A stretch of 64,000 bases of DNA from a virus. Its lineage: Duplodnaviria > Caudoviricetes. This document shows positions 1 through 19,391 of the stretch, piece after piece. The notes under the pieces were generated by a model. It ran no database searches. It was given only the letters and a program-made list of their open reading frames with translations, and had not been told where the DNA came from. The stretch is from the IMG/VR virus record IMGVR_UViG_3300042561_002102; one strand, written 5' to 3'. The translations under genes were made by a program, and so were the position numbers. Numbering within the stretch: position 1 is the stretch's first letter; each line of letters opens with the position of its first letter.

Positions 1-616
1 TTAAATATATCCATCAACAGACCAAAGGGCATCTATTCTCTCTAGTTCATCTTGGATTAGAATTTTGGTAAGCTCATCTTGTTTTTTTCTTAAAGGTGGT
101 GTGTTCCAGGGTCTACTTACATAATATAAGAAGTAGGAGTTTTTGTTTATTTGTTTTTTGATAACTTCAGGCGTGAAAAAGTGATGTGTAAGTATTAGTT
201 CAGCTTCTCCTGGTTTTTCTTTTTTTTTTTTTAAGTCTACTGGTAAATCCTCGAAGAGAGTATTCATTACGGGAATTATTGAACCAAAACATTCCATCTA
301 CCTTATCGGGTGCGCCTTCTAGAGATACGAGGTGATTATGATCACAACTAAAATACCAACCTACCTCTCTTGGAGATCCATCGAGTGTTCCCAGATTGTT
401 TCCTGAACAATCAAACCATCCACTCACCTTTCCAAACCCGATACCCAAGAAATCTTCAAGTCCTTCACCACCACAAAGAAAAAATCACTCGACATCAACA
501 AGTCCTTCACTATTCACCGACCAACTTCCATCAGTATAGTTATCTAAAAACTTTCTCTGCTCATCCGTTAAACCATCACGACTCTCAAATAACTTGTAAT
601 CTCTAAGATATCTCAT
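1..616 (-). pseudogene. Divergent LRR-array paralogue A0, disrupted
   Basis: Starts MRYLRDYKLFES at 616. Has an in-frame TGA at 485-487 where paralogues have GGA, and an A13 tract (230-242) that shifts the frame; A12 would restore it. Ends DALWSVDGYI-stop at 1-3. Confidence 0.8.
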
Positions 617-627
617 AACACTATATA

Positions 628-1299
628 TTAAAGATATCCACCAATAGACCACAAATCGTCTATCTTTACAAGTATATTCTCGGGTAATATCTTTTTTAGC
701 TCTTCTTGTTTCTTCTTGAACTCTTCCGTATTCCAAACAAGACTTACGTAATACGGGAAATCAGGATTTTTAGTTATTTGTTCTTTTATAACTTCAGGTG
801 TAAAGAAATGATGGGTAAGAAGTAGTGATATTTCTTCTGGTTTGATATGGTCTATCTCGTCCAGGAAGGATTGTAAGTTATAGCTGAACAAGGTATTCTT
901 GAAGTAGAATTCATACTTTATCACTTCAGGAGCTCCCTTTAGGGATATCAAGGGATTTCTTTCACACCAAAAACTCCCACGAACCACTCTAGGTGATCCT
1001 TCAAGAGTTCTCAGTTGGTTACCATGACACAAAAAACCTTCACCAACCTCTCTAGGTGATCCCTCAAGAGTTCTCAGTTGATTATCAAAACACCAAAAAT
1101 CACCACTCACCTTTCCAAACCTGATACCTAAGAAATCTTCAAGTCCTTGACTATAACAATAAAAACTTCCCCTAACATCAACAAGTCCTTCTCTATTCAC
1201 CGACCAACTTCCATAAGTATAGTTATCTAAAAACTTACTCTGCTCATCCGTTAAACCATCACGACTCTCAAATAACTTGTAATCTCTAAGATATCTCAT
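628..1299 (-). CDS. LRR-array paralogue A1 (223 aa)
   Basis: MRYLRDYKLFES start after TAATATATA; 21-aa VxGxFxCxxNQLRTLEGSP repeats; constant C-terminus DDLWSIGGYL. Confidence 0.92.
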   Translation of the reverse strand: MRYLRDYKLFESRDGLTDEQSKFLDNYTYGSWSVNREGLVDVRGSFYCYSQGLEDFLGIRFGKVSGDFWCFDNQLRTLEGSPREVGEGFLCHGNQLRTLEGSPRVVRGSFWCERNPLISLKGAPEVIKYEFYFKNTLFSYNLQSFLDEIDHIKPEEISLLLTHHFFTPEVIKEQITKNPDFPYYVSLVWNTEEFKKKQEELKKILPENILVKIDDLWSIGGYL

Positions 1300-1315
1300 A
1301 ACACTATATATTATA

Positions 1316-1987
1316 TTAAAGGTATCCACCAATAGACCATAAATCGTCTATCTTTACAAGTATATTCTCGGGTAAAATCTTTTTTAGCTCTTCTTGTGTT
1401 TTTTTGAACCCTTCAGTATTCCAGGCAAGACTTACGTAATACGGAAAATCAGGATTTTTAGTTATTTGTTTTTTTATGATCCCAGGTGTGAAGAAATGAT
1501 GTGTGAGAAGTAGTGATATTTCATCAGGTTCGATATGGTCTATTTTTTCAAGGAAGGATTGTAAGTTATATTCGAACCAGGTTTCCTTGAAACGGAATTG
1601 ACCCTTTATCACTTCAGGTGCTCCCTGTAGAGATATCAGGGGATTTCCATCACAAGAAAAATCTCCACCAACCTTCCTCGGTGCCCCTTCAAGAGTTTTT
1701 AGTTGATTACCATCACAATCAAAATTTCCAACAACCTCACGAGGTGATCCCTCAAGAGTTCTCAGTTGATTCCAATAACACCAAAAATAACCACTCACCC
1801 GTCCAAACCTAATACCCAAGAAATCTTCAAGTCCTTGATTTTCACACCAAAAACTTCCCTCGACATCAACAAGTCCTTCACTATTCACTGACCAACTTCC
1901 ATCAGTATATTTATCTAAAAACTTCCTCTGCTCATCCGTTAAACCATCACGACTTTCAAACAATCTATAATCTCTAAGATATCTCAT
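1316..1987 (-). CDS. LRR-array paralogue A2 (223 aa)
   Basis: Same architecture; start trimmed to the MRYLRD ATG. Confidence 0.92.
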   Translation of the reverse strand: MRYLRDYRLFESRDGLTDEQRKFLDKYTDGSWSVNSEGLVDVEGSFWCENQGLEDFLGIRFGRVSGYFWCYWNQLRTLEGSPREVVGNFDCDGNQLKTLEGAPRKVGGDFSCDGNPLISLQGAPEVIKGQFRFKETWFEYNLQSFLEKIDHIEPDEISLLLTHHFFTPGIIKKQITKNPDFPYYVSLAWNTEGFKKTQEELKKILPENILVKIDDLWSIGGYL

Positions 1988-1998
1988 AACACTATATA

Positions 1999-2670
1999 TT
2001 AAAGGTATCCACCAATAGACCATAAGTCGTCTATCTTCAGGAGTATATTCTCGGGTAATGTCTTTTTCAGTTCCTCTTGTGTTTTTTTGAAGCCTTCGGT
2101 ATTCCAAGCAAGACTTACGTAATACGGGAAATCAGGATTTTTAGTTATTTGTTTTTTTATGACTTCAGGTGTAAAGAAACGATGGGTAAGTAGTAGTGAT
2201 ATTTCTTCCGGTTTGATATGGTCTATCTTGTTTAGGAATGATTGTAAGTTATAGCTGGACTCGGTATTCTTGAAACAGAACGAATCTTTTATCACTTCAG
2301 GTGCACCCTCTAGAGATATCAGGGGATTTCCAGAACACCAAAAACCTCCACCAACCTTTCTAGGTGATCCTTCAAGAGTCCTTAGTTGGTTATCGCAACA
2401 CCAAAAATTTCCACCGACTACCCTAGGTGATCCTTCAAGAGTTCTCAGTTGGTTTCTACGACAAAAAAAATAACCAGTAACCTTTCCAAACCTGATACCC
2501 AAGAAGTCACCAAGTTCTTGATCTTCACACCAAAAACTTCCCCTAACATTAACAAGTCCTTCACTATTCACCGACCAAGTTCCAATAGTATTCTTATCTA
2601 AAAACTTCCTCTGCTCGTTAGTTAGACTATTCATGTTCTCAAATAACTTGTAATCTCTTAGATATCTCAT
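1999..2670 (-). CDS. LRR-array paralogue A3 (223 aa)
   Basis: Same architecture. Confidence 0.92.
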   Translation of the reverse strand: MRYLRDYKLFENMNSLTNEQRKFLDKNTIGTWSVNSEGLVNVRGSFWCEDQELGDFLGIRFGKVTGYFFCRRNQLRTLEGSPRVVGGNFWCCDNQLRTLEGSPRKVGGGFWCSGNPLISLEGAPEVIKDSFCFKNTESSYNLQSFLNKIDHIKPEEISLLLTHRFFTPEVIKKQITKNPDFPYYVSLAWNTEGFKKTQEELKKTLPENILLKIDDLWSIGGYL

Positions 2671-2680
2671 ACTCTATATA

Positions 2681-3352
2681 TTAAAGATATCCACCAATAG
2701 ACCACAAATCGTCTATCTTCACGAGTATATTCTCGGGTAAGATCTTTTTTAGTTCATCTTGTTTCTTCTTGAACGGTTCAGTATTCCAAGCGAGACTTAC
2801 GTAGTATGGAAAATCAGGATTTTTACTGATTTGTTTTTTTATAACCTCGGGTGTAAAGAAATGATGGGTAAGTAGGAGTGATATTACATCCGGTTCGGAG
2901 TCGTCTATATTTCCAAGGAATGATCGTAAGTTATAGCTGAACCAGGTATTCTTGAATTGGAACTCACAATTTATCACTTCAGGTGCTCCCTCTAGAGATA
3001 TCAGAGGATTTGCAGAACAACAAAAATCTTCACCAACCTTTCTGGGTGATCCTTCAAGAGTTCTCAGTTGGTTATCGAAACAACTAAAATCTATACCAAC
3101 CTCTCTAGGTGATCCTTCAAGCGTTCTCAGTTGGTTACCATTACAAAAAAAACCCAACCTCACCTTTCCAAACCTAATACCTAAGAAATCTTCAAGTTCT
3201 TGACCTTGACACCAAAAACTTCCGTCGACATCAACAAGTCCTTCACTATTCACCGACCACCTTCCATGAGTATTCTTATCTAAAAACTTCCTCTGCTCAT
3301 CCGTTAAACCATCACGACTCTCGAATAGCTTATAATCTCTAAGATATCTCAT
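2681..3352 (-). CDS. LRR-array paralogue A4 (223 aa)
   Basis: Same architecture. Confidence 0.92.
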   Translation of the reverse strand: MRYLRDYKLFESRDGLTDEQRKFLDKNTHGRWSVNSEGLVDVDGSFWCQGQELEDFLGIRFGKVRLGFFCNGNQLRTLEGSPREVGIDFSCFDNQLRTLEGSPRKVGEDFCCSANPLISLEGAPEVINCEFQFKNTWFSYNLRSFLGNIDDSEPDVISLLLTHHFFTPEVIKKQISKNPDFPYYVSLAWNTEPFKKKQDELKKILPENILVKIDDLWSIGGYL

Positions 3353-3362
3353 ACTCTATATA

Positions 3363-4034
3363 TTAAAGATATCCACCAATAGACCACAAATCGTCTATCT
3401 TCACGAGTATATTCTCGGGTAACATCTTTTTTAGTTCTTCTTGTTTCTTCTTGAACCCTTCAGTATTCCAGGCAAGACTTACGTAGTATGGAAAGTTTGG
3501 ATTTTGGTCGATTTGTTCTTCGATAACTTGAGGTGTAAAGAAACGATGCGTAAGTAGTAGTGATATCTGATCCGGGTTGATTTGGTCTATACTGAATAGG
3601 AATGATTGTAAGTTATAGCTGAACCGGGTATTCTTGAAACAGAAGTTACTTCCTATCACTTCAGGTGCTCCCTCTAGGGATATAAGTGGATTTCCATAAC
3701 AATAAAAATCTCCACGAACCACTCTAGGTGATCCTTCAAGAGTTCTCAGTTGGTTCCCAGAACAACTAAAATCTTTACCAACCTCGATGGGTGCCCCTTC
3801 AGGAGTTCTCAGTTGATTATCAAAACACCAAAAATATCCACTCACCTTTCCAAACCTGATACCTAAGAAATCTTCAAGTCCTTGATTATTACACCAAAAA
3901 TTTCCCCTAACATCAACAAGTCCTTCACTATTCACCGACCAAGTGCCACGAGTATTCTTATCTAAAAACTTTCTCTGCTCATCCGTCAAACCATCACTAC
4001 TCTCGAATAGCTTATAATCTCTAAGATATCTCAT
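3363..4034 (-). CDS. LRR-array paralogue A5 (223 aa)
   Basis: Same architecture; start trimmed. Confidence 0.92.
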   Translation of the reverse strand: MRYLRDYKLFESSDGLTDEQRKFLDKNTRGTWSVNSEGLVDVRGNFWCNNQGLEDFLGIRFGKVSGYFWCFDNQLRTPEGAPIEVGKDFSCSGNQLRTLEGSPRVVRGDFYCYGNPLISLEGAPEVIGSNFCFKNTRFSYNLQSFLFSIDQINPDQISLLLTHRFFTPQVIEEQIDQNPNFPYYVSLAWNTEGFKKKQEELKKMLPENILVKIDDLWSIGGYL

Positions 4035-4045
4035 AACACTATATA

Positions 4046-4717
4046 TTAAAGATATCCACCGATAGACCACAAGTCGTCTATCTTCAGGAGTATATTCTCG
4101 GGTAATGTCTTTTTTAGCTCTTCTTGTGTTTTTTTAAATCCTTCGGTATTCCAGGCAAGACTTACGTAATATGGGAAATCAGGATCTTGGTCGATTTGTT
4201 CTTTTATAACTTCAGGTGTGAAGAAATGATGTGTAAGAAGGAGTGATATTTCATCTGGTTTGATTTGGTCTATCCTGTTTAGGAATGATGGTAAGTTATA
4301 TTTGAATCGGGTATTCTTGAAAAGGAAGTTACCCTCTATCACTTCAGGTGCTCCTTCTAGAGATATCAGTGGATTTTTATAACACCTAAAATCTCCACCA
4401 ACCACTCTAGGTGCTCCTTCAAGAGTTCTCAGTTGGTTACTGAAACAACTAAAATGTTCACCAACCTCCCTAGGTGATCCTTCAAGAGTTCTCAGTTGGT
4501 TACCCCAACAATAAAAACCTCCACTCACCTTTCCAAACCTAATACCTAAGAAATCTTCAAGTCCTTGTTCATGGCCCCAAAAACTTCCCTTGACATCAAC
4601 AAGTCCTTCACTATTCACCCACCACTTTCCACAAGCAATCCTATCTAAAAACTTACTTTGCTCATCCGTTAAACCATCATTACTCTCGAATAGCTTATAA
4701 TCTCTTAGATATCTCAT
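4046..4717 (-). CDS. LRR-array paralogue A6 (223 aa)
   Basis: Same architecture. Confidence 0.92.
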   Translation of the reverse strand: MRYLRDYKLFESNDGLTDEQSKFLDRIACGKWWVNSEGLVDVKGSFWGHEQGLEDFLGIRFGKVSGGFYCWGNQLRTLEGSPREVGEHFSCFSNQLRTLEGAPRVVGGDFRCYKNPLISLEGAPEVIEGNFLFKNTRFKYNLPSFLNRIDQIKPDEISLLLTHHFFTPEVIKEQIDQDPDFPYYVSLAWNTEGFKKTQEELKKTLPENILLKIDDLWSIGGYL

Positions 4718-4727
4718 ACTCTATATA

Positions 4728-5399
4728 TTAAAGATATCCACCGATAGACCACAAGTCGTCTATCTTCAGGAGTATATTCTCGGGTAATATCTTTTTTAGT
4801 TCATCTTGTGTTTTTTTAAATCCTTCGGTATTCCAGGCAAGACTTATGTAATATGGGAAATCAGGATTTTTAGTTATTTGTTCCTTAATAACCTCGGGTG
4901 TAAAGAAATGATGAGTAAGAAGGAGTGTTATTACATCTGGTTTTACATGGGCTATCCTGTTTAGGAATGATTGTAAGTTATATCTGAAAACGGTTCTCTT
5001 GAACAAGAATTGACCCTCTATCACTTCAGGTGCTCCCTCTAGAGATATCAAGGGATTTCCATGACAATGAAAATCTCCATCAACCTTTCTAGGTGCCCCT
5101 TCAAGAGTTCTCAGTTGATTAGCCCAACAATAAAAACCTTCACCAACCTCCACGGGTGATCCTTCAAGAGTTCTCAGTTGGTTACTACGACAACTAAAAT
5201 CTCCACTCACCTTTCCAAACCTAATACCCGAGAAATCTTCAAGTCCTTGACTATGACAATAAAAATCTCCCTCGACATCAACAAGTCCTTCACTATTCAC
5301 CGACCAAGTTCCACGAGTATACTCATCTAAGAACTTCCTCTGCTCATCCGTCAAACCATCACGACTCTCGAATAACTTATAATCTCTAAGATATCTCAT
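4728..5399 (-). CDS. LRR-array paralogue A7 (223 aa)
   Basis: Same architecture; start trimmed. Confidence 0.92.
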   Translation of the reverse strand: MRYLRDYKLFESRDGLTDEQRKFLDEYTRGTWSVNSEGLVDVEGDFYCHSQGLEDFSGIRFGKVSGDFSCRSNQLRTLEGSPVEVGEGFYCWANQLRTLEGAPRKVDGDFHCHGNPLISLEGAPEVIEGQFLFKRTVFRYNLQSFLNRIAHVKPDVITLLLTHHFFTPEVIKEQITKNPDFPYYISLAWNTEGFKKTQDELKKILPENILLKIDDLWSIGGYL

Positions 5400-5410
5400 A
5401 ACACTATATA

Positions 5411-6082
5411 TTAAAGATATCCACCAATAGACCATAAGTCGTCTATCTTCAGGAGTATATTCTCAGGTAATATCTTTTTTAGTTCATCTTGTTTCTTCTT
5501 GAACGGTTCTGTATTCCAAACAAGACTTACGTAGTATGGAAAGTTCGGATTTTTAGTTATTTGTTCTTCGATAACTTTAGGTGTAAAGAAATGATGGGTA
5601 AGAAGTAGTGATATTTCATCTGGGTTGATTTGGTCTATTTTTCTAAGGAATGATTGTAAGTCATAGTCGAAAAAGGTATCGTTGAAACAAAAGTCATTCT
5701 TTATCACATCAGGAGCTCCCTCTAGGGATATCAGGGGATTTAGATAACAATAAAAACTTCCATCAACCTCTGTAGGTGATCCTTCAAGAGTTCTTAGTTG
5801 GTTACCATGACACAAAAAATCTCCACCAACCTCGCTGGGTGCCCCTTCAAGAATCCTTAGTTGGTTACTAGAACAATTAAAACTTCCTCTCACCTTTCCA
5901 AACCTGATACCCAAGAAATCTTCAAGTCCTTGATCTTCACAAAGAAAACTTTCCTTGACATCAACAAGTCCTTCATTATTCACCGACCAAGTTCCATAAG
6001 TATTCCTATCTAAAAACTTCCTCTGCTCATCCGTTAAACCATCACGACTCTCAAATAACCTATAACCCTGGATATACTTCAT
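5411..6082 (-). CDS. LRR-array paralogue A8 (223 aa)
   Basis: Same architecture; starts MKYIQGY. Confidence 0.92.
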   Translation of the reverse strand: MKYIQGYRLFESRDGLTDEQRKFLDRNTYGTWSVNNEGLVDVKESFLCEDQGLEDFLGIRFGKVRGSFNCSSNQLRILEGAPSEVGGDFLCHGNQLRTLEGSPTEVDGSFYCYLNPLISLEGAPDVIKNDFCFNDTFFDYDLQSFLRKIDQINPDEISLLLTHHFFTPKVIEEQITKNPNFPYYVSLVWNTEPFKKKQDELKKILPENILLKIDDLWSIGGYL

Positions 6083-6093
6083 AACACTATATA

Positions 6094-6765
6094 TTAAAGA
6101 TATCCACCAATAGACCACAAATCATCTATCTTCAGGAGTATATTCTCGGGTAAGATCTTTTTTAGATCCTCTTGTTTCTTCTTGAACGGTTCTGTATTCC
6201 AAACAAGACTTACGTAATATGGGAAATCAGTATTTTGAGTTATTTGTTCCCGAATAACCTCGGGTGTAAAGAAATGATGGGTAAGTAGGAGTGATATTAA
6301 TTCTGGTTTCATACGGTCTATCTCGTTTAGGAATGATTGTAAGTTATATCTGAAATAGGTTTTCTTGAAACTGAATTGACCCTCTATCACTTCAGGTGCT
6401 CCCTCTAGAGATATAAGTGGATTTTCATAACAATAAAAACTTCCACCAACCACTCTAGGTGATCCTTCAAGAGTTCTCAGTTGGTTACCCCAACACCCAA
6501 AATCTCCACCAACCTAGCTGGGTGCCCCATCAAGAGTTCTTAGTTGGTTACTACTACAATAAAAACTTCCGCTCACCTTTCCAAACCTGATACCTAAGAA
6601 ATCTTCAAGTCCTTGACCTTGACAATAAAAACCTCCCTTGATATCAACAAGTCCTTCACTATTCACCGACCAAATTCCACTAATACACTTAGCTAAAAAC
6701 TTCCTCTGCTCATCCGTTAAACCATCACGACTCTCGAATAGCTTATACTTTCTAATATACTTCAT
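6094..6765 (-). pseudogene. LRR-array paralogue A9 with internal nonsense codon
   Basis: Full-length 672-bp frame with an in-frame TAG at 6514-6516 where paralogues have GAG (APS-E-V). Confidence 0.85.
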
Positions 6766-6866
6766 ACTACTATATATTAAAGATATCCACCGATAAACTA
6801 CCCTTCATCTACTCCCTCTAGATCCTCTTGAGATAGGATTCTACGAAGCTCATTTTTTTGAAGGTG

Positions 6867-6988
6867 AGATACATTTAGGTTTTCTTTTTTAATATATACA
6901 CTAAAATAATAAACGAAGATGAAAGATAAAAGACACATAAAAAGTTTTAATGAAGCAACAGAAAACTTGAACATATCTGGTCTTAGTG
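6867..6988 (+). repeat. Degenerate leader-type attC-like element (left core lost)
   Basis: AGATACATTT..AACATATCTG arms; homologous to 10140-10273 and 12582-12716; contains TAATATATA and the ATG of the 6919 ORF. Confidence 0.6.
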
Positions 6989-7173
6989 ATAGTAGTTTTA
7001 ATTTTAATGATGAAAAGTTAAGAACTATGATGAAAGATTTAGTTGATTATACAAGAGGTAAGATCAGAGAGGTTCCAAAAGATACAGAGTCGAAAAAATT
7101 CGTTGATAATTTCATCAAAGAATATGAAGACTGGTATAAATTAAGTGATGAAGAACAGAGGTCTGCTATTTAA
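6919..7173 (+). CDS. Hypothetical protein with shared MKxxxHIKSFNE..ENLNIS leader
   Basis: ORF; first ~21 aa homologous to the ORFs at 10204 and 12647, remainder unrelated. Confidence 0.75.
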   Translation: MKDKRHIKSFNEATENLNISGLSDSSFNFNDEKLRTMMKDLVDYTRGKIREVPKDTESKKFVDNFIKEYEDWYKLSDEEQRSAI

Positions 7174-10139: not shown

Positions 10140-10273
10140 ACATAACGGCTACAGATATATTTAGGTTTTCTTTTTATATATATACTAAAAATAATAAACG
10201 AGTATGAAAGATTTAAAACACTTAAAGAGATTTAACGAGTCAGATGAAAACTCGAATATATCTGATGTTAGAA
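10140..10273 (+). repeat. Leader-type attC-like element
   Basis: ACATAAC-ggcta-cagatatatt ... aatatatctg-at-GTTAGAA; the loop holds TATATA, an ATG and the leader codons. Confidence 0.75.
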
Positions 10274-10446
10274 GTGATAAATCACACATTGATTTCTTGG
10301 ATGAATTTGTTGAAAAAATAAACCAGTTAAGAGATGATGTTAAAAAGAAGGGTTATGTTGATAATGAAAATGTGGATTTTATAGAGGAGCTTTACTCTGT
10401 TTATTCATTTTATTATGATACAGAGGAGAGGTTTGTTAAAAATTGA
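10204..10446 (+). CDS. Hypothetical protein with shared leader
   Basis: MKDLKHLKRFNESDENSNISDV, then unique sequence. Confidence 0.75.
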   Translation: MKDLKHLKRFNESDENSNISDVRSDKSHIDFLDEFVEKINQLRDDVKKKGYVDNENVDFIEELYSVYSFYYDTEERFVKN

Positions 10447-10454: not shown

Positions 10455-11794
10455 TCAAGTCAAAGAAAACACAGAAGTCTTTAGCTTCTGTGATGAATTT
10501 GTAAATATTTTACTAAAAATAGTAAAAAAGTTTAAGAAAATACAAAAAGGAACTTTGAAACTTTAATATATACTAATATGTTAAAGTCGTATAAATATAA
10601 GATTAAACCAACAGAAGATCAAAAAGTCTTGTTAAACAAGCATTTTGGATCTATAAGGTTTGCTTATAATTACTTCTTGAATGAGCGTAAATTTGAATAC
10701 GAAACCAATAAACAAACCTTAAATTATAATGATAATTCTGCGACTTTGACAAAGCTTAAAAAACAAGAAGAATTCAAGTGGTTAAAGGAAATCAATAGCC
10801 AATCACTTCAACATTCACTCAAAAGTTTAGATGATTCTTATAATTCCTTTTTTAAGAAAAGAACTGGATTTCCTAAATTTAAATCTAAACATAGTAAAAA
10901 TTCATTTAAAGTTCCTCAATTTGTTAGGGTAAATGATGGATGTTTAATAATACCAAAGTTTAAAGATCCTATCAAGATGATCCAAGATAGAAAGTTTAAA
11001 GGTGATATTAGACAAGCTACATTATCAAAAACACCTACAAATGAGTATTTTGTAAGTATTTTAGTTGAAACAGATCACAAGAAGTTTGATAAGACCGGTA
11101 AAGAAGTTGGGATTGATCTAGGAATTAAAGATTTCGTTATAACTAGTGATGGACATAAGTATAAGAATAATAAATTTACAAAAACTTACGAAAATAAACT
11201 TACAGAAAATCAAAGACATTTGGCTAAAAAAGTTAGGGGAAGTAGTAAATATAACAAACAAAAACTTAAAGTAGCTAAACTACACAAGAAGATAACCAAT
11301 TCTCGTTTAGATAATCTACATAAAGTATCCACAGAGTTAGTCAGGAAGTATGATGTAATCTATCTTGAAGATCTAAACATCAAAGGAATGATTAAAAATC
11401 ATAAATTGGCTAAACACATTTCAGACGCTTCGTGGGGTAAATTCATTACCCTACTGGAATATAAAGCTATTTGGAATGACAAGCAGATAGTTAAAATCGA
11501 TAGATTTTTTCCATCCAGTAAGCAATGTAATAATTGTGGATTCATAAATCAAAATTTAAAATTGGATTGTAGGGAATGGACTTGTCCTTCCTGTAATACG
11601 GAGTTAGATAGAGATTTAAATGCTAGTAAAAATATCCTTAAAGAAGGAATTAAAACATTATCGTTTGGAACAGACGATTACAGACATGGAGCTCAAATAA
11701 GACCAGTTTTAACTGGCACAGGCGATGAAGTGTTTAAAAAGAAGGAGCTAATGTCTCCCGAAACACAACGAACTTTAGTCGTTGTGTAGTTCAT
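10455..11794 (+). mobile_element. Non-autonomous IS200/IS605-family (IS1341-like) element
   Basis: tnpB without tnpA; left hairpin cacagaag-tctttag-cttctgtg (10470-10492); right hairpin acacaacga-actttag-tcgttgtgt-agttcat (11763-11794). The exact left boundary is uncertain. Confidence 0.75.
10578..11789 (+). CDS. tnpB: RNA-guided endonuclease TnpB
   Basis: N-terminal HTH_OrfB-type sequence (YKYKIKPT..LLNKHFG..RFAYN); RuvC motifs GIDLG, EDL and DRDLNAS; CxxC..CxxC zinc ribbon. Confidence 0.95.
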   Translation: MLKSYKYKIKPTEDQKVLLNKHFGSIRFAYNYFLNERKFEYETNKQTLNYNDNSATLTKLKKQEEFKWLKEINSQSLQHSLKSLDDSYNSFFKKRTGFPKFKSKHSKNSFKVPQFVRVNDGCLIIPKFKDPIKMIQDRKFKGDIRQATLSKTPTNEYFVSILVETDHKKFDKTGKEVGIDLGIKDFVITSDGHKYKNNKFTKTYENKLTENQRHLAKKVRGSSKYNKQKLKVAKLHKKITNSRLDNLHKVSTELVRKYDVIYLEDLNIKGMIKNHKLAKHISDASWGKFITLLEYKAIWNDKQIVKIDRFFPSSKQCNNCGFINQNLKLDCREWTCPSCNTELDRDLNASKNILKEGIKTLSFGTDDYRHGAQIRPVLTGTGDEVFKKKELMSPETQRTLVVV

Positions 11795-12272: not shown

Positions 12273-12286
12273 TAATATAGATTTAT

Positions 12287-12466: not shown

Positions 12467-12579
12467 ATATAACTCGTTTATTCGTGAAGTTTTACCAACC
12501 CTATACACCCGAATGATGTTGTATTTGTGTTGGTAAGATTTGGAAATCTCGAAACTTATTTGTATATTTGTAAAAAAAT
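12467..12579 (+). repeat. Promoter-type boundary element
   Basis: TATAACTCGTTTAT...TTTG (12539)...TATATTTG (12563-12570). Confidence 0.65.
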
Positions 12580-12581
12580 TA

Positions 12582-12716
12582 CACATAACGTCTCTTAGAT
12601 ATATTTAGGTTTTTTTTTTAATATATACTAAAAACAATTTACGAAGATGAAAGGTAATAAACACATAAAAAGTTTCAACGAGCATCAAGAAAACTTGAAT
12701 ATATCTGATGCTGGCG
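12582..12716 (+). repeat. Leader-type attC-like element with mutated right core
   Basis: CACATAAC..agatatattt ... aatatatctg-at-GCTGGCG. Confidence 0.65.
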
Positions 12717-13183
12717 AAGGCTTTGGATTGAAAACTGGTAAATATGTATTATATAACCATCAGACCATTCCATTACCAATTGAAATTACTGAGATAGGTA
12801 TGGATGGCTGGATAGAATTTGAAACTGACTATTCAGTTGGTAATAAACAATATTGGGTAAAGGAATTCATTGGAACAGAAATGGAGGGACTTGTATACGA
12901 TCCGATCAGGGGTTGGTTTAAATTTAGTGAGATAGAAAAAGTAGAAGGAAAAAAAATATACTTGCTTGTTGGTGATATTTTCAAAATTAAAGCACAGAGA
13001 TTAATAGATGATACTAAAAAACTAAAAGACGAATACTCCCAAAGCCAATATAAAAAGATAATAGATTTAGAAAAACTAATACATGGAACAGAAGATGATA
13101 GGAAAAAGTTTGTTAAATCTATTATGAGACTTTTAGGAATGACAAAGTGGGACTTACCAGATGAGTTGTATAGGTATTTGTAA
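12647..13183 (+). CDS. Hypothetical protein with shared leader
   Basis: MKGNKHIKSFNEHQENLNISDA, then unique sequence. Confidence 0.8.
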   Translation: MKGNKHIKSFNEHQENLNISDAGEGFGLKTGKYVLYNHQTIPLPIEITEIGMDGWIEFETDYSVGNKQYWVKEFIGTEMEGLVYDPIRGWFKFSEIEKVEGKKIYLLVGDIFKIKAQRLIDDTKKLKDEYSQSQYKKIIDLEKLIHGTEDDRKKFVKSIMRLLGMTKWDLPDELYRYL

Positions 13184-13189
13184 AATTAT

Positions 13190-13243
13190 CACTAACGTAT
13201 GATGATAAACAATCGTTTTAATGTTGTTTATCATTTGTTATGT
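13190..13243 (+). repeat. Short attC-like hairpin
   Basis: CACTAAC-gtatg-atgataaacaa..ttgtttatcat-tt-GTTATGT; perfect 11-bp inner stem. Confidence 0.8.
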
Positions 13244-13272
13244 GTAGTCTATTTCATAAATATATAATTAAT

Positions 13273-13725
13273 ATGAAGCTAAAAAAATACAACGAATACA
13301 ATTCACATAAAGATACATTAATAGTATCAGCTTTTCCAGGATGTGGAAAATCACACTATTTCAGAGAAAATAGGGACAAAATCGTACTTGACTCTGATTC
13401 AAGTAAGTTTGATAAATCAGATTTTCCAAGAAACTATATTCAACATATCAAAGAAAATAGGGGTAAAGTCGATGTTATAATGGTTTCTTCTCATAAAGAG
13501 GTAAGGGATGCGTTGGTAGAAAATGGAATAGAATTTACATTAGTATATCCTGATAAATCTATAAAAGATGAGTATATTCAAAGATATATTGATAGAGGTA
13601 GTCCAGATTCATTTATCAACTTACTTACGAAAAATTGGGAATTGTGGATTGATGAACTCGATAATCAAATTGGTTGTGATAAAATAAAACTAAAAGAAGG
13701 TGAATATCTTTCGGATGTTTTATAA
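13273..13725 (+). CDS. Small P-loop NTPase / kinase-like protein
   Basis: IVSAFPGCGKS Walker A; VLDSDSS; start trimmed to MKLKKYNE. Confidence 0.7.
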   Translation: MKLKKYNEYNSHKDTLIVSAFPGCGKSHYFRENRDKIVLDSDSSKFDKSDFPRNYIQHIKENRGKVDVIMVSSHKEVRDALVENGIEFTLVYPDKSIKDEYIQRYIDRGSPDSFINLLTKNWELWIDELDNQIGCDKIKLKEGEYLSDVL

Positions 13726-13734
13726 AATAGATTA

Positions 13735-13867
13735 CACATAACGATACTCAGATATACTCAGTTCCCAGATTTAATATATAAACTTAAATTGAAACACGAA
13801 ACAATTGAAAAGAACAGAATTAAAAGATTTAACGAAAACTCAGAATTGAATATATCTGATGTTAGCA
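13735..13867 (+). repeat. Leader-type attC-like element (divergent loop)
   Basis: CACATAAC..cagatatactca ... tgaatatatctg-at-GTTAGCA. Confidence 0.7.
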
Positions 13868-13974
13868 GTTCGTTGTATCCTACCGATGAACAAATTTTAG
13901 AAATGGTAGAAGATTTTACAAAAGACTTGAATGTGAGCAACACAGTTAAAAAAGCGACGATTTGTGGTCTATAG
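13789..13974 (+). pseudogene. Truncated leader-fused ORF joined to array B upstream remnant
   Basis: RIKRFNENSELNISDV leader; at ~13955 it runs into array sequence GACGATTTGTGGTCTATAGG. Confidence 0.5.
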
Positions 13975-13999
13975 GGGGGTATCTTTAATATATAGTCAT

Positions 14000-14671
14000 A
14001 TGAAGTATATTAGAAAGTATAAGTTATTTGAGAGTAGTGATGGTTTGACGGATGAGCAAAGGAAGTTTTTAGATAGGAATACTGAAGGAACTTGGTCGGT
14101 GAATAAAGAAGGACTTGTTGATGTTAGGGGAAGTTTTTGGTGTCAAGGTCAAGAACTTGGAGATTTCTTAGGTATCAAGTTTGGAAAGGTGAGTGGAAGT
14201 TTTTTTTGTTGGGGTAACCAACTGAGAACTCTTGAAGGATCACCTAGAGAGGTTGGTGGAAATTTTGGGTGTAATGGTAACCAACTGAGAACTCTTGAAG
14301 GATCCCCTATGATGGTTGGTGAAAGTTTTTGGTGTGGAGAAAATCCTTTAATATCTTTAGAAGGAGCTCCTGAAGTGATAGAGGAAGAGTTCAAATTCAA
14401 GAATACCTGGTTCGACTATAACTTACAATCATTCCTAGACGAGATAGACCGTATCAAGCCGGATGAAATATCACTGCTACTTACCCATCACTTCTTCACA
14501 CCACAAGTTATAAAAGAACAAATAACTAAAAATCCTGATTTCCCGTATTATGTAAGTCTTGCCTGGAATACAGAAGGATTCAAAAAAACACAAGATGAAC
14601 TTAAAAAGATCTTACCCGAGAATATACTCGTGAAGATAGACGACTTGTGGTCTATTGGTGGATATTTATAA
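14000..14671 (+). CDS. LRR-array paralogue B1 (223 aa)
   Basis: MKYIRKYKLFES; same architecture as array A. Confidence 0.92.
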   Translation: MKYIRKYKLFESSDGLTDEQRKFLDRNTEGTWSVNKEGLVDVRGSFWCQGQELGDFLGIKFGKVSGSFFCWGNQLRTLEGSPREVGGNFGCNGNQLRTLEGSPMMVGESFWCGENPLISLEGAPEVIEEEFKFKNTWFDYNLQSFLDEIDRIKPDEISLLLTHHFFTPQVIKEQITKNPDFPYYVSLAWNTEGFKKTQDELKKILPENILVKIDDLWSIGGYL

Positions 14672-14682
14672 TATATAGTAGT

Positions 14683-15354
14683 ATGAAGTATATCCAGGGT
14701 TATAAGTTATTCGAGAGTCGTGATGGTTTGACGGATGAGCAGAGAGAGTTTTTAGATAGGATTGCTCGTGGAAGGTGGTCGGTGAATAGTGAAGGACTTG
14801 TTGATATCAAGGGAATTTTTATTTGTAGTGGTGAAGGACTTGAAGATTTCTTAGGTATCAGGTTTGGAAAGGTGAGTGGAAATTTTTCTTGTAGAGATAA
14901 CCAACTGAGAACTCTTAAAGGATCACCTAGAGAGGTTGGTGGAGATTTTAGTTGTCGTGGTAACCAACTTAGAACTCTTGAAGGATCACCTAGAAAGGTT
15001 GATGGATGTTTTTATTGTTATAGAAATCCACTGGTATCCCTAGAGGGAGCTCCTGAAGTGATAGAGGGTAGCTTCTATTTCAAGAATACCTGGTTCAGAT
15101 ATAACTTACCATCATTCCTGAACTGGATAGACCGTATCAAACCGAGTGAAATATCACTACTACTTACCCATCATTTCTTTACGATTGAGGTTATTCAGGA
15201 ACAAATCGACCAAAATCCTGATTTCCCATATTATGTAAGTTGCGCCTGGAATACTGAAGGATTCAAGAAGAAACAAGAAGAGCTAAAAAAGATATTACCC
15301 CAGAATATACTCGTTAAGATAGATGATTTGTGGTCTATTGGTGGATATCTTTAA
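14683..15354 (+). CDS. LRR-array paralogue B2 (223 aa)
   Basis: Same architecture. Confidence 0.92.
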   Translation: MKYIQGYKLFESRDGLTDEQREFLDRIARGRWSVNSEGLVDIKGIFICSGEGLEDFLGIRFGKVSGNFSCRDNQLRTLKGSPREVGGDFSCRGNQLRTLEGSPRKVDGCFYCYRNPLVSLEGAPEVIEGSFYFKNTWFRYNLPSFLNWIDRIKPSEISLLLTHHFFTIEVIQEQIDQNPDFPYYVSCAWNTEGFKKKQEELKKILPQNILVKIDDLWSIGGYL

Positions 15355-15366
15355 TATATACAGAGT

Positions 15367-16038
15367 ATGAAGTATATCCAGGGTTATAGGTTATTTGGGA
15401 AAGTAGATAGTCTCACTGACGAGCAGAGGAAGTTTTTAGATAAGTATATTTCAGGAAGATGGTCAGTGAATGGTGGAGGACTTGTTGATATCGAGGGAAG
15501 TTTTATTCCTGGTGGTGGAGGACTTGAAGATTTCTTAGGTATCAGGTTTGGAAAGGTGAGTGTAAGTTTTAATTGTTGGGGTAACCAACTGAGAACTCTT
15601 GAAGGGGCACCTAGGGTGGTTGATGGAAATTTTAGTTGTTCTAAGAACCAACTGAGAACTCTTGAAGGATCACCTAGAGTGGTTCGTGGAAGTTTTTGGT
15701 GTGAAGGAAATCCCTTGATATCCCTAAAGGGAGCCCCTGAAGTGATAGAGGGTTCCTTCTGTTTCAAGAATACTTATTTCGGATATAACTTACAATCATT
15801 CCTTGAAAAAATAGACGACGACCAACCTGATGAAATATCACTCCTACTTACCCATCACTTCTTCACACCTCAAGTTATCGAAGAACAAATAACTAAAAAT
15901 CCTGATTTCCCATACTACGTAAGTCTTGTTTGGAATACAGAACCGTTCAAGAAGAAACAAGATGAACTAAAAAAGATCCTACCCGAGAATATACTCGTGA
16001 AGATAGATGATCTGTGGTCTATTGGTGGATACCTTTAA
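15367..16038 (+). CDS. LRR-array paralogue B3 (223 aa)
   Basis: Same architecture. Confidence 0.92.
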   Translation: MKYIQGYRLFGKVDSLTDEQRKFLDKYISGRWSVNGGGLVDIEGSFIPGGGGLEDFLGIRFGKVSVSFNCWGNQLRTLEGAPRVVDGNFSCSKNQLRTLEGSPRVVRGSFWCEGNPLISLKGAPEVIEGSFCFKNTYFGYNLQSFLEKIDDDQPDEISLLLTHHFFTPQVIEEQITKNPDFPYYVSLVWNTEPFKKKQDELKKILPENILVKIDDLWSIGGYL

Positions 16039-16048
16039 TATATAGAGT

Positions 16049-16783
16049 ATGAAGTATATTCGAGATTATAAGCTATTTGAGAGTCGTGATGGTTTGACGG
16101 ATGAGCAGAGGAAGTTTTTAGATAAGAATACTCGTGGAACTTGGTCGGTGAATAGTGAAGGACTTGTTGATGTCGACGGAAGTTTTTGGTGTGAAGATCA
16201 AGAACTTGGTGACTTCTTGGGTATCAGGTTTGGAGAGGTAATTGGAAGTTTTCGGTGTTATGCTAACCAACTGAGAACTCTTGAAGGATCACCCAGAAAG
16301 GTTGGTGGAAATTTTAGTTGTTTCAGTAACCAACTGAGAACTCTTGAAGGATCACCTAGGGAGGTTGTTGGGGGTTTTTATTGTTTTCGTAACCAGCTGA
16401 GAACTCTTGAAGGATCACCTAGAGTGGTTGGTGGACATTTTAATTGTTCGGAAAATCTACTGATATCTCTAGAAGGAGCACCTGAAGTGATAGAGGGTCA
16501 TTTCTGTTTCAAGAATACCTGGTTCAGCTATGACTTACGATCATTCCTGAACGAGATAGACCGTATAAAACCAGATGAAATATCACTGATACTTATCCAT
16601 CACTTCTTTACACCCGAGGTTATTCGGGAACAAATAACTCGAAATCCTGATTTTCCATATTACGTAAGTCTTGTTTGGAATACAGAAGGGTTCAAAAAAA
16701 CACAAGAAGTCCTAAAAAAGATCTTACCCCAGAATATACTCGTTAAGATAGATGATTTGTGGTCTATTGGTGGATATTTATAA
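16049..16783 (+). CDS. LRR-array paralogue B4 (244 aa, one extra repeat)
   Basis: 223+21 aa. Confidence 0.92.
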   Translation: MKYIRDYKLFESRDGLTDEQRKFLDKNTRGTWSVNSEGLVDVDGSFWCEDQELGDFLGIRFGEVIGSFRCYANQLRTLEGSPRKVGGNFSCFSNQLRTLEGSPREVVGGFYCFRNQLRTLEGSPRVVGGHFNCSENLLISLEGAPEVIEGHFCFKNTWFSYDLRSFLNEIDRIKPDEISLILIHHFFTPEVIREQITRNPDFPYYVSLVWNTEGFKKTQEVLKKILPQNILVKIDDLWSIGGYL

Positions 16784-16794
16784 TATATAGTATT

Positions 16795-17403
16795 ATGAGA
16801 TATCTTAGAGATTATAGATTGTTTGAGAATGTAGATAGTCTTACTGACGAGCAGAGGAAGTTTTTAGATAACTTTACTCGTGGAACTTGGTCGGTGAATA
16901 ATGAAGGACTTGTTGATATCAAGGGGAGTTTTCTTTGTGGTAATGAAGGACTTGAAGATTTCTTAGGTATCAGGTTTGGAAAGGTGAGTGGACATTTTTA
17001 TTGTTGGGGTAACCAACTGAGAACTCTTGAAGGATCACCTAGAAAGGTTGGTGAAGATTTTAATTGTGCTGATAATCCACTGATATCCCTAGAGGGAGCA
17101 CCTGAAGTTATAAAGTGTGATTTCCGTTTCAAGAATACCTGGTTCAGATATAACCTACAATCATTCCTTAAAAAAATGCTCCAAATCAAACCAGATGAAA
17201 TATCACTCCTACTTACCCATCATTTCTTTACACCACAAGTCATAAAAGAACAAATAACTAAAAATCCTGATTTTCCATATTACGTAAGTCTTGCCTGGAA
17301 TACCGAAGGGTTCAAGAAGAAACAAGAGGAGCTAAAAAAGATATTACCCCAGAATATAGTTGTCAAGATAGACGACTTATGGTCTATTGGTGGATATCTT
17401 TAA
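16795..17403 (+). CDS. LRR-array paralogue B5 (202 aa, one repeat fewer)
   Basis: 223-21 aa. Confidence 0.92.
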   Translation: MRYLRDYRLFENVDSLTDEQRKFLDNFTRGTWSVNNEGLVDIKGSFLCGNEGLEDFLGIRFGKVSGHFYCWGNQLRTLEGSPRKVGEDFNCADNPLISLEGAPEVIKCDFRFKNTWFRYNLQSFLKKMLQIKPDEISLLLTHHFFTPQVIKEQITKNPDFPYYVSLAWNTEGFKKKQEELKKILPQNIVVKIDDLWSIGGYL

Positions 17404-17414
17404 TATATAGTGTT

Positions 17415-18086
17415 ATGAGATATCTAAGGGATTATAGATTGTTTGAGAATGTAGATAGTCTAACTGACGAGCAGAGGAAGTTTTTAGATAAGTATTCTTC
17501 TGGAAAGTGGTCAATGAATGGTGAAGGACTTGTTGATATCAAGGGAAGTTTTTTTTGTGGTAGTCAAGGACTTGAAGATTTCTTAGGTATCAGGTTTGGA
17601 AAGGTGAGTGGAAATTTTTATTGTGATGATAACCAACTAAGGACTCTTGATGGGGTACCTAGCGAGGTTGGTGCAGATTTTGGGTGTTGGGGTAACCAAC
17701 TGAGAACTCTTGAAGGATCACCTAGAAAGGTTGGTGATGGTTTTTATTGTGGTACAAATCCACTTATATCTCTAGAGGGAGCTCCTGAAGTGATAGGGTA
17801 TTACTTCATTTTCAAGAATACCTTGTTAAGATATAACTTACAATCATTCCTAAACGAGATAGACCGTATCGAACCTGATGTAATATCAGTCCTACTTACC
17901 CATTATTTCTTTACACCCGAGGTTATTAAGGAACAAATAACTAAAAATCCTGATTTCCCTTACTACGTAAGTCTTGCGTGGAACACGGAAGGATTCAAAA
18001 AAACACAAAATGAACTAAAAAAGATATTACCCGAGAATACACTCCTAAAGATAGACGACTTATGGTCTATCGGTGGATATCTTTAA
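17415..18086 (+). CDS. LRR-array paralogue B6 (223 aa)
   Basis: Same architecture. Confidence 0.92.
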   Translation: MRYLRDYRLFENVDSLTDEQRKFLDKYSSGKWSMNGEGLVDIKGSFFCGSQGLEDFLGIRFGKVSGNFYCDDNQLRTLDGVPSEVGADFGCWGNQLRTLEGSPRKVGDGFYCGTNPLISLEGAPEVIGYYFIFKNTLLRYNLQSFLNEIDRIEPDVISVLLTHYFFTPEVIKEQITKNPDFPYYVSLAWNTEGFKKTQNELKKILPENTLLKIDDLWSIGGYL

Positions 18087-18098
18087 TATATACAGAGT

Positions 18099-18770
18099 AT
18101 GAAGTATATCCAGGATTATAAGTTATTTGAGAGTCGTGATGGTTTAACGGATGAGCAGAGGAAGTTCTTAGATAAGAATACTGAAGGAACTTGGTCGGTG
18201 AATAGTGAAGGACTTGTTGATATCAAGGGAAGTTTTTGGTGTCAAGATCAAGGACTTGAAGATTTCTTAGGTATTAGGTTTGGAAAGGTGAGTGGAGGTT
18301 TTTATTGTTATTATAACCAACTGAGAACTCTTGAAGGGGCACCCAGAGAGGTTGGTGGAAATTTTGATTGTGATGGTAACCAACTAAGAACTCTTGAAGG
18401 ATCACCTAGGGAGGTTGATGGAAATTTTTATTGTTATGAAAATCCCCTGGTATCCCTAGAGGGAGCTCCTGAAGTGATAAAGATTGACTTCCGTTTCAAT
18501 AATACCGTTTTCAGATATAACTTACAATCATTCCTAAGAGTGTTAGACCAAATCAAACCTGATGTAATATCAGTCCTACTTACCCATTATTTCTTTACAC
18601 CCGAGGTTATTAAGGAACAAATAACTAAAAATCCTGATTTCCCTTACTACGTAAGTCTTGCGTGGAACACGGAAGGATTCAAAAAAACACAAAATGAACT
18701 AAAAAAGATATTACCCGAGAATACACTCCTAAAGATAGACGACTTATGGTCTATCGGTGGATATCTTTAA
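18099..18770 (+). CDS. LRR-array paralogue B7 (223 aa)
   Basis: Same architecture. Confidence 0.92.
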   Translation: MKYIQDYKLFESRDGLTDEQRKFLDKNTEGTWSVNSEGLVDIKGSFWCQDQGLEDFLGIRFGKVSGGFYCYYNQLRTLEGAPREVGGNFDCDGNQLRTLEGSPREVDGNFYCYENPLVSLEGAPEVIKIDFRFNNTVFRYNLQSFLRVLDQIKPDVISVLLTHYFFTPEVIKEQITKNPDFPYYVSLAWNTEGFKKTQNELKKILPENTLLKIDDLWSIGGYL

Positions 18771-18782
18771 TATATACAGAGT

Positions 18783-19391
18783 ATGAAGTATATCCAGGAT
18801 TATAAGTTATTTGAGAGTCGTGATGGTTTAACGGATGAGCAGAGGAAGTTTTTAGATAGGATTGCTCCTGGTAGGTGGTCGGTGAATAGTGAAGGACTTG
18901 TTGATATCAAGGGAAGTTTTTATTGTTATAGACAAAGACTTGAAGATTTCTTAGGTATTAGGTTTGGAAAGGTGAGTGGAGGTTTTTATTGTTGGGGTAA
19001 CCAACTGAGAACTCTTGAAGGATCACCTAGGGAGGTTGGTGAAGATTTTAATTGTGCTAATAATCTACTGATATCCCTAGAGGGAGCACCTGAAGTTATA
19101 AAGCATGAATTCTGGTTCATGAATAGCAGTTTCAGATATAACTTACGATCATTCCTTAGAAAAATGCCCCAAATCAAACCAGATGAAATATCACTCCTAC
19201 TTACCCATCATTTCTTCACACCTGAAGTCATAAAAAAACAAATCGACCAAAATCCTGATTTTCCATATTACGTAAGTCTTGCCTGGAATACCGAGGGGTT
19301 CAAAAAAACACAAGAGGAGCTAAAAAAGATTTTACCCCAGAATATAGTTGTAAAGATAGACGACTTATGGTCTATTGGTGGATATCTTTAG
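18783..19391 (+). CDS. LRR-array paralogue B8 (202 aa)
   Basis: Last copy; ends in TAG and is not followed by TAATATATA. Confidence 0.92.
   Translation: MKYIQDYKLFESRDGLTDEQRKFLDRIAPGRWSVNSEGLVDIKGSFYCYRQRLEDFLGIRFGKVSGGFYCWGNQLRTLEGSPREVGEDFNCANNLLISLEGAPEVIKHEFWFMNSSFRYNLRSFLRKMPQIKPDEISLLLTHHFFTPEVIKKQIDQNPDFPYYVSLAWNTEGFKKTQEELKKILPQNIVVKIDDLWSIGGYL

Follow-up and report, generated by a model that had tools for sequence, protein, structure and literature searches.

A tandem repertoire of leucine-rich repeat genes with a diversified predicted binding face in a huge freshwater phage

Virus-encoded families of repeat proteins are known, and so are the leucine-rich repeat (LRR) repertoires of hosts that are diversified by selection and gene conversion. 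The present work deals with 18 LRR paralogues arranged in two tandem arrays on a viral DNA of 64,000 nucleotides (Caudoviricetes; IMG/VR record IMGVR_UViG_3300042561_002102), the whole of which is called 'the window' hereafter and is read as coming from a huge freshwater phage. In our view it is rather probable that this phage carries an inherited combinatorial repertoire of small predicted binder proteins. Literature searches revealed no description of a phage with a large tandem LRR repertoire randomized on one face, and LRR proteins are not mentioned in a survey of jumbo phages (PMC7824862).

Several described systems share part of these features. Internalin J (InlJ) of Listeria monocytogenes (3bz5) is a cysteine-ladder LRR protein with 21-residue repeats (Bublitz 2008, cited in PMC9525666). 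It resembles the phage proteins by the length of the repeat and by a conserved Cys replacing a core hydrophobic residue in the pattern L..L.C..N.L. However, internalin J, a bacterial adhesin, is long, secreted and anchored to the wall, and has 15 repeats plus an Ig-like domain, whereas the phage proteins have two to four full repeats, another N-cap, a unique helical C-terminal domain (C-domain), no export signal and Phe at position 4 of the repeat. The variable lymphocyte receptors (VLRs) of lampreys and hagfish are alike in their constant caps, hypervariable concave face, copying of LRR modules between genes and variable repeat number. Each lymphocyte builds its VLR somatically out of incomplete germline cassettes, in a process linked to deaminases. 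In contrast, the phage genes are all complete and inherited, exchange sequence over evolutionary time and have no sequence relation to VLRs beyond the LRR fold; somatic assembly of the VLR type was rejected for them, since every unit is a complete gene with its own start, stop and upstream motif. In plants, clusters of NLR resistance genes, for example RPP8, contain tandem paralogues with diversifying LRR residues and exchange between genes (PMC6771003), but these encode host immune receptors with signalling domains, while the phage proteins would be composed of a binder and a small constant domain only. Among viruses, the FNIP/FGxxFN LRR proteins of CroV represent LRR expansions thought to bind host factors by the concave surface (PMC9525666). 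That family differs by its eukaryotic hosts and by variability restricted to one or two positions per repeat, and membership of the phage proteins was discarded because the FGxxFN motif of its 22-23-residue repeat is not in the phage repeat consensus.

Phages themselves provide three further comparisons. The internal proteins IPI, IPII and IPIII of T4 and the hyperplastic IP locus of T-even phages consist of diverse small proteins with a common short N-terminal targeting peptide, at least one of which, IPI*, inhibits a restriction enzyme of the host once injected (PMC3012670). They differ from the LRR paralogues by unrelated folds, few genes and the lack of a diversified LRR face, and they are packaged proteins, whereas packaging of the LRR paralogues is putative. 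Giant phages possess tandem families of plastic copy number, such as head family B of SPN3US (20 members) and the inner-body paralogues of phiKZ (PMC5694885); these are proven head components, with no hypervariable face described and no similarity to the LRR paralogues in a tblastn search of phages. Lastly, the variable proteins of diversity-generating retroelements (DGRs, Mtd type) combine, as do the phage LRR proteins, a constant scaffold with a massively variable ligand-binding surface, but they rely on a reverse transcriptase and adenine mutagenesis, usually with one or two targets, and have a C-type lectin or Ig fold.

Variable positions and conserved scaffold of the paralogues

In a tblastn search of the window with one unit, the minus strand yields nine full-length units (628-6765) and a decayed one (1-616), and the plus strand eight units (14000-19391), which makes 18 in total (10 minus and 8 plus; Table 1). 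Together with the listing of open reading frames (ORFs), this bears out the count of ~683-bp units made in an earlier interpretation of the DNA letters, referred to here as the sequence-only reading. The minus array (1-6765) and the plus array (14000-19391) have a unit period of ~683 bp and are transcribed outward from a 7.2-kb central segment, according to the ORF listing and tblastn. Genes usually measure 672 bp (223 aa), with two of 609 bp and one of 735 bp, and the length variants of 202, 223 and 244 aa differ by exactly one 21-residue repeat. Spacers of 10-16 nt follow the TAA stop, and all junctions read TAA-TATATA, then 5-7 nt, then ATG. Sixteen of the 18 genes are intact and two (m09 and m00) are broken. 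A recent inverted duplication as the origin of the two arrays was rejected, since the best identities between arrays (~80%) equal the values within arrays and between genomes.

The predicted product of ~26 kDa comprises an 11-residue N-terminal tag, an N-cap, an LRR solenoid of two to four full 21-residue repeats with a degenerate repeat on either flank, and a constant C-domain of five helices. The proteins are mostly acidic (pI ~5) and of cytoplasmic type, no signal peptide or membrane segment being found in the paralogues. In their alignment the scaffold V..F.C..N.L...G.P is invariant, in line with the consensus previously proposed, and within the.F.C..N.L segment of the 21-residue repeat the residues F, C, N and L are the same in 49 of 49 repeat copies.

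The fold was examined by profile and by structure prediction. The profile of the family matches a single entry among the PDB sequences, internalin J 3bz5 (E 2.7e-10), in an alignment that places Phe at LRR position 4, Cys at 6 and Asn at 9. An AlphaFold2 (AF2) model of p07, built from an alignment of 54 sequences (pLDDT 91, pTM 0.83), shows disordered residues 1-13, a helix at 18-27, a solenoid at 28-138, each repeat of which has a short strand at its F-x dipeptide, and five helices at 142-220. In a structural comparison with VIA-align, nearly all of the top 50 matches are LRR proteins, with moderate Z values of 6.4-9.9 over residues 20-153; they include internalins, SDS22, LegL1, YopM, the Nogo receptor and VLR fusions. 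Foldseek against PDB returns LRR-like rows only, all weak (E > 0.2), and BFVD gives weak matches to viral LRR proteins, with FGxxFN-type proteins at E > 0.1. Pfam and PHROGs searches with the window paralogues yielded no meaningful family and no Pfam LRR match, and PF12799 is annotated on 309-aa relatives. Judged from the profile match and from a model that resembles almost only LRR proteins, the paralogues, already taken as LRR proteins by the sequence-only reading, belong to the cysteine-ladder, InlJ-like class. As to the C-domain, its profile reaches 11 representative clusters among 1.84 billion proteins, and it is joined to this LRR in seven of eight inspected clusters, the eighth being a weak and unrelated match. 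In shape it recalls only generic helical repeats in Atlas (TM ~0.6) and two phage clusters, so that its function is not readable from these matches; the whole architecture is common to four phage-only Atlas clusters (TM 0.59-0.75).

Diversity at the variable sites is maintained by selection and the scaffold is conserved. Variation in the paralogue alignment is concentrated at positions F-1, F+1, F+3 and F+4 of the repeats. Because the alignment with internalin J sets the F/C/N register, these positions correspond to LRR positions 3, 5, 7 and 8, i.e. to the canonical concave face. The sites submitted to analysis were pre-defined from the repeat register (the four positions in five turns, 20 codons) and not from observed variability, and dN/dS ratios were derived from pairwise Nei-Gojobori counts on 17 genes. 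The ratio amounts to 3.16 at the pre-defined sites (pN 0.485, pS 0.210), to 0.41 in the remaining LRR region and to 0.27 in all other codons of the genes; omega values of 0.15-0.3 for the scaffold indicate purifying selection. Random sets of 20 codons (5000 sets) give a median of 0.38 and a maximum of 2.06, and none reaches 3.16. Hypervariability on the predicted binding face only had been proposed beforehand, with a codon alignment and dN/dS as the check; the elevation falls exactly on LRR positions 3, 5, 7 and 8, as assigned by register.

The extent of this diversity was evaluated on 128 distinct 223-aa members taken from the window, related loci and database matches. Within this set, 17 of the 20 pre-defined sites rank among the 26 most variable of 223 positions, and pairwise identity at the variable sites is 0.270, compared with 0.275 expected for independent draws and with 0.836 in the scaffold. 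The 128 proteins display 109 distinct 20-residue signatures. Residues at these sites are dominated by Y (17%), G (13%), S (12%), N (12%) and D (10%), followed by W (6.4%), R (6%), K (5.2%), E (3.9%) and Q (1.6%). The residues I, L, V, A, T and P are rare, at <1.5% each. Such a composition is typical of binding paratopes, also of sugar-binding sites, and differs strongly from what neutrality would produce in an AT-rich genome. Identity between paralogues is 77% within a genome and likewise 77% between genomes, and no window gene other than m03 has a clear orthologue in a different lineage.

As a separate observation on codon usage, codons for N, D, H, Y, F and C end in T in 92% of cases at variable sites (424:35), compared with 66% in the scaffold (1618:825), for instance at codons 45-50, 67-72 and 88-93 of the units; this bias is not DGR-like.

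These results bear on a reading in which the family has no binding function and is selfishly amplified or structurally redundant, its exposed residues drifting. Such a reading would accommodate the two pseudogenes among 18 copies, the additional copy broken in a sister sample and the differences in copy number between samples. It is nevertheless very unlikely, given that dN exceeds dS threefold at the variable sites, that I, L, V, T, A and P are almost missing there despite the AT-rich genome, that the scaffold is under purifying selection and that the m03 orthologue conserves its paratope.

Gene conversion, unequal crossing-over and stability of the arrays

Short-tract gene conversion reshuffles the diversity of the paralogues, and unequal crossing-over gains or loses whole 63-bp repeats and 683-bp units. 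The pairwise homoplasy index (PHI) is 0.708, compared with 0.763 +/- 0.009 for permuted alignments, and none of 300 permutations is as low. Pairwise identity in one third of the gene (N-terminal, LRR or C-terminal) is uncorrelated with that in another (rho ~0), and p06 and p07 have in common a 212-nt identical 3' end, the rest of their sequences being 78-83% identical. In four samples of another lineage, near-identical variants differ in clustered blocks and not by scattered changes. The four variable residues of a repeat behave as modules, with 69-77 distinct combinations per repeat versus 105-121 expected under independence of positions. When non-orthologous pairs share one module, the frequency of sharing an adjacent module as well is 7-20%, and that of sharing a non-adjacent one 0-4%, the baseline of module sharing in such pairs being <1%, up to 2% for the last repeat. 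Because linkage decays from adjacent to non-adjacent repeats, conversion tracts would span about one to two repeats.

Direct comparison of the locus of the same phage in two other samples (L012 and L013) shows these events individually. L012 differs from the window by one single-nucleotide polymorphism in 14 kb and by the clean loss of one unit, p07. L013 contains a ~105-nt conversion tract across the m09/m08 junction, which switches the type of N-terminal tag, and one new nonsense codon (m07 E79-to-stop). As these differences consist of a unit deletion, a tract and a nonsense codon, change in the arrays is taken to be dominated by conversion and unequal crossing-over. The recombinational diversification suggested by the sequence-only reading is thereby confirmed at the levels of PHI, module linkage, block changes and the events in L012 and L013.

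Two side observations concern variants at the assembly level. The related locus L004 contains a repeated block of four genes (genes 18-21 = genes 13-16) that is not in L003, the array of a different sample; the block is either a true duplication or an assembly artefact within a repeat. At 14210-14214, a contig variant of a 2025 run alters codons 71-72 of p01 from Trp-Gly to Arg-Ala, both being variable positions; since it lies near the contig end, this variant may come from a co-occurring strain or from a paralogue.

The broken copies have each been characterized. The amber codon of m09 is a TAG where the paralogues read GAG, and the same stop occurs in L012 and L013. Readthrough of TAG or an alternative genetic code was rejected for this gene, as no tRNA was found in the window and there was no other support, and the codon is therefore taken as a nonsense mutation. 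The C-terminal half of m00 is of a divergent type, as in the single-copy gene of L009, a related 95-kb contig. An uninterrupted partial version of m00 exists elsewhere (P0123, 141 aa), covering the last repeats and the C-domain, with a poly-Lys run that is free of the frameshift. The element at 6766..6800 was classified as a remnant on the basis that its sequence ends like the conserved 3' end of the genes.

The locus persists in the environment. About 80% of sampled words of the locus are present in 18 lake-water metagenome runs from 2020-2025; one run marked 'RNA?', which is probably DNA, covers mainly 12-13 kb and not the arrays. Stability of the array in these metagenomes indicates that the repertoire is inherited and not hypermutating. 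The qualifier 'antibody-like' used by the sequence-only reading consequently stands in the sense of an inherited repertoire of germline type and fails in the sense of somatic or DGR-type hypermutation.

Rewriting of the variable codons by a DGR or a similar mechanism of somatic type was rejected, and we regard it as exceedingly improbable. The variable codons are overwhelmingly NNT, which superficially recalls mutagenized AAT codons. However, W, K, E and Q, which mutagenesis of AAY cannot yield, make up 17% of the variable residues, the conserved Asn (AAY) and many A-containing codons of the scaffold are untouched, and the arrays are essentially identical over five years, 2020-2025, and in L012 and L013. 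In addition, no reverse transcriptase domain was found in window ORFs of at least 150 aa, and no template repeat in the window by tblastn, which finds only the 18 family copies, all of them genes.

Several points weigh against a repertoire of diversifying binders and should be considered together. The position of the variable residues on the concave face is supported by register and by the internalin J alignment, not by inspected coordinates. Counting of dN/dS ignores recombination and saturation, and values >1 could partly mean that old selected modules reside in a scaffold homogenized by conversion; selection would still favour diversity in this case, but an arms race need not be under way. 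In the orthologous trio of m03, nearly all variable residues are kept across 12-20 synonymous differences, which implies that individual specificities can be conserved. With two of 18 copies broken and a third one broken in L013, individual copies appear dispensable. Finally, the arrays are almost letter for letter the same in lake runs of 2020, 2024 and 2025.

With these points taken into account, an inherited repertoire of binders is still the explanation that we favour. A conserved scaffold and handle combined with a randomized LRR concave face point to a panel of binders directed against variable host molecules. About 20 concave residues, at LRR positions 3, 5, 7 and 8 of five successive turns, would form a paratope that differs in each copy, and each paralogue would bind a different, variable host molecule through this face. 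The constant C-domain and the tag may give all copies a common handling, whether localization, packaging or docking. The most likely use would be to neutralize or recognize polymorphic host proteins inside the infected cell, with capsid delivery through the tag as a possibility.

Table 1. Position of the LRR units and associated features in the window; the last tag-like entry is a stretch of the locus L008
Feature	Position	Strand	Description
m00	1..616	-	Terminal decayed copy; one in-frame stop and one frameshift in a poly-A run
m01	628..1299	-	Intact 223-aa LRR paralogue
m02	1316..1987	-	Intact 223-aa LRR paralogue
m03	1999..2670	-	Intact 223-aa paralogue; orthologues L001_p15 (94%) and L005_p06 (91%)
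m04	2681..3352	-	Intact 223-aa LRR paralogue
m05	3363..4034	-	Intact 223-aa LRR paralogue
m06	4046..4717	-	Intact 223-aa LRR paralogue
m07	4728..5399	-	Intact 223-aa paralogue here; E79-to-stop in sample L013
m08	5411..6082	-	Intact 223-aa paralogue; first 30 codons replaced in L013 by the conversion tract
m09	6094..6765	-	First minus-array gene; single amber codon (6514-6516)
Orphan remnant of unit 3' end with TAATATATA motif	6766..6800	-	Upstream of first minus gene
TnpB (IS605 OrfB)	10578..11789	+	Between the arrays; context, outside the repertoire
Orphan remnant of unit 3' end with TAATATATA motif	13955..13999	+	Upstream of first plus gene
p01	14000..14671	+	Intact 223-aa paralogue; equals P0018, present on many contigs
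p02	14683..15354	+	Intact 223-aa LRR paralogue
p03	15367..16038	+	Intact 223-aa LRR paralogue
p04	16049..16783	+	244-aa paralogue; one additional 21-residue repeat
p05	16795..17403	+	202-aa paralogue; one repeat less
p06	17415..18086	+	Intact 223-aa paralogue; 3' end shared with p07
p07	18099..18770	+	Intact 223-aa paralogue; structure-modelled copy; deleted cleanly in L012
p08	18783..19391	+	202-aa paralogue; final gene of the plus array
Tag-like N-terminus	19709-21757	-	
Tag-like N-terminus	26901-28280	+	
Tag-like N-terminus	28459-28929	+	
Tag-like N-terminus	42903-44192	-	
Tag-like N-terminus	45008-45550	-	
Tag-like N-terminus	53775-54068	+	
Tag-like N-terminus	L008 4908-12425		
TAATATATA, examples	6890, 10564, 12619, 21763, 40582, 44200, 45570		

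N-terminal tag, upstream motif and possible sites of action

The 11-residue tag is basic at its start, continues with spaced aromatic or hydrophobic residues and ends in L-F-E, followed by S; it is disordered in the model. In T4, the sequence that targets internal proteins to the capsid is cleaved at a hydrophobic-x-Glu motif. The tag resembles this targeting sequence in length and in its hydrophobic-x-Glu ending, which is a resemblance only. The T4 sequence has ~10 residues and is cut by gp21 (PMC10229621, PMC5694885). About 10 window proteins without assigned function start in a similar manner (M-K, basic, spaced aromatic or hydrophobic residues, then Glu; examples in Table 1), and the pattern is not in the Hsp70, methylase, glycosyltransferases, TnpB or nucleases of the window. 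In LR756501, a distant huge phage of 735 kb, tags of this kind are found in a tandem LRR array and in genes next to it, and the phage encodes a member of the T4 gp21 family of head maturation proteases (Peptidase_S77). In a word-based homology search with this protease no member was found on the 335-kb contig of the window, a result that says nothing about absence, and an Atlas search with the tagged 682-aa neighbour was uninformative.

These features suggest a special case of the favoured explanation, in which the paralogues would be internal proteins packaged in the capsid and injected: a prohead protease would cut after Glu11 and the LRR panel would block host defence before phage expression. 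We hold this to be possible but doubtful. It is consistent with the disorder of the tag and its T4-like length and ending, with the occurrence of tags on proteins lacking an assigned function and not on recognizable enzymes, and with the joint presence of a tagged LRR array and a gp21-family protease in LR756501. It also has precedents in the T4 internal proteins, a diverse anti-restriction set sharing only the targeting sequence (PMC3012670), and in the 20-member paralogue family contained in the head of the giant phage SPN3US (PMC5694885). On the other hand, so short a motif could stem from AT-rich codon usage or from needs of translation initiation. Moreover, the paralogues are mostly acidic, unlike IPII and IPIII of T4, which are basic and DNA-associated. 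A fuller version of the packaging scheme, a ready-made set of 'innate antibodies', is still more speculative: tag-bearing, module-shuffled LRR binders would be packaged and injected with the DNA, each virion bringing inhibitors of many alternative host defence proteins; the C-domain would couple each of them to one common effector or docking step, and hundreds of specificities would exist population-wide, exchanged by gene conversion between co-infecting phages.

The main alternative, which we judge improbable, is that the paralogues are accessory adhesins of the virion surface, anchored on capsid or tail by the C-domain and binding variable host glycans or proteins by their LRR faces, thus widening adsorption. 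In function they would then be comparable to Ig-domain decoration proteins or to receptor binders diversified by DGRs. An excess of Tyr, Trp, Asn and Asp at the variable sites would also be appropriate for binding carbohydrates, the restriction of the conserved C-domain to this LRR fits a docking module, and the surfaces of Bacteroidota, to which the host probably belongs, are highly polymorphic. LRR-containing proteins of other jumbo phages have been suggested to act in host recognition (Goslar preprint). Against an adhesin role, no recognizable tail-fibre, baseplate or decoration domain was found in the paralogues with Pfam and PHROGs, a single-copy relative adjoins a gene for a replication protein, the single-stranded DNA-binding protein (SSB), and the relative of a Vibrio phage adjoins DnaB. 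The buried cysteine ladder and the missing export signal are neutral in this respect. Alternatively, the constant C-domain may link all of the binders to one shared partner.

The window contains 26 occurrences of the TAATATATA motif, compared with 2.3 expected. Every LRR gene is preceded by it, as are unrelated genes, that of TnpB among them; the distance to the ATG is 5-20 nt, with one site at 78 nt. The motif may be a phage promoter for near-leaderless mRNAs or a translation-initiation element; scans for sigma-70 promoters and terminators stayed at chance level. Independently, three genes of the central segment, at 6919-7173, 10204-10446 and 12647-13183, share the homologous N-terminus M-K-x-x-K-H-I/L-K-S/R-F-N-E ... 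N-I-S-D, which is followed by unrelated sequence.

Genomic setting, wider family and implications

The gene content of the window is phage-type, in accordance with the phage-encoded origin assumed from the start. Besides the arrays, the window encodes Hsp70, a Dam-type methylase, an HNH protein, TnpB and glycosyltransferases, as well as phage-type endo- and exonucleases, a transcription antiterminator and a transglycosylase. Window proteins are present on contigs of up to 335 kb. Among the phage records searched, the nearest is a 642-kb uncultured huge phage, which matches only over Hsp70 (73%). A type IX secretion system (T9SS) sorting domain on one window protein fits a Bacteroidota host, and the host is probably a member of this phylum. 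The Hsp70 gene is full-length (38632-40509(+), 807 bits to PF00012), and in L009, the related 95-kb contig, positions 1175-2197 encode a DnaJ-like protein whose J-domain motif was read by eye.

Additional observations concern TnpB. Two runs yield contigs in which the first position of the window adjoins ~11494 of the opposite strand, and variant letters occur across 11531-11742. These features (site 11494-11617) imply that a second, inverted and diverged TnpB copy lies just left of the window; the minus array is enclosed between the two copies, which could have inverted it. In the loci L001 and L002, TnpB comes directly after the array, in the same orientation.

Relatives of the paralogues form >600 clusters at 90% identity in metagenomes. 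Another lineage has arrays of at least 21 genes, and other relatives have six to seven repeats with the same tag and C-domain. In IMG/VR, a scan with a single protein found nothing and a profile scan gave one single-copy relative. A single-copy relative stands beside a gp32-type SSB on the 95-kb phage contig. In the tblastn search of phages with a paralogue, only Vibrio and uncultured phages were retrieved. The cultured 196-kb Vibrio phage VB_VaC_SRILMA encodes CDS0008 (L007 5950-6585), a 211-aa protein adjoining DnaB that consists of eight 21-residue repeats, almost identical to one another, of the G.F.C..N.L.SL.GAP class, without tag and C-domain; it could be an experimental handle on this class of repeats.

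The deletion of a unit and the conversion tract seen between samples provide a clean system to measure how recombination drives the evolution of gene arrays in natural phage populations. Should the paralogues be binders of host factors, they would represent a natural 26-kDa cysteine-ladder LRR scaffold with ~20 designable positions and >100 natural variants, and, used as baits, they could lead to defence or surface proteins of uncultured freshwater Bacteroidota. The locus would then also show that phages can meet the diversity of their hosts by means of an inherited combinatorial library, and not by single inhibitors or DGR mutagenesis.

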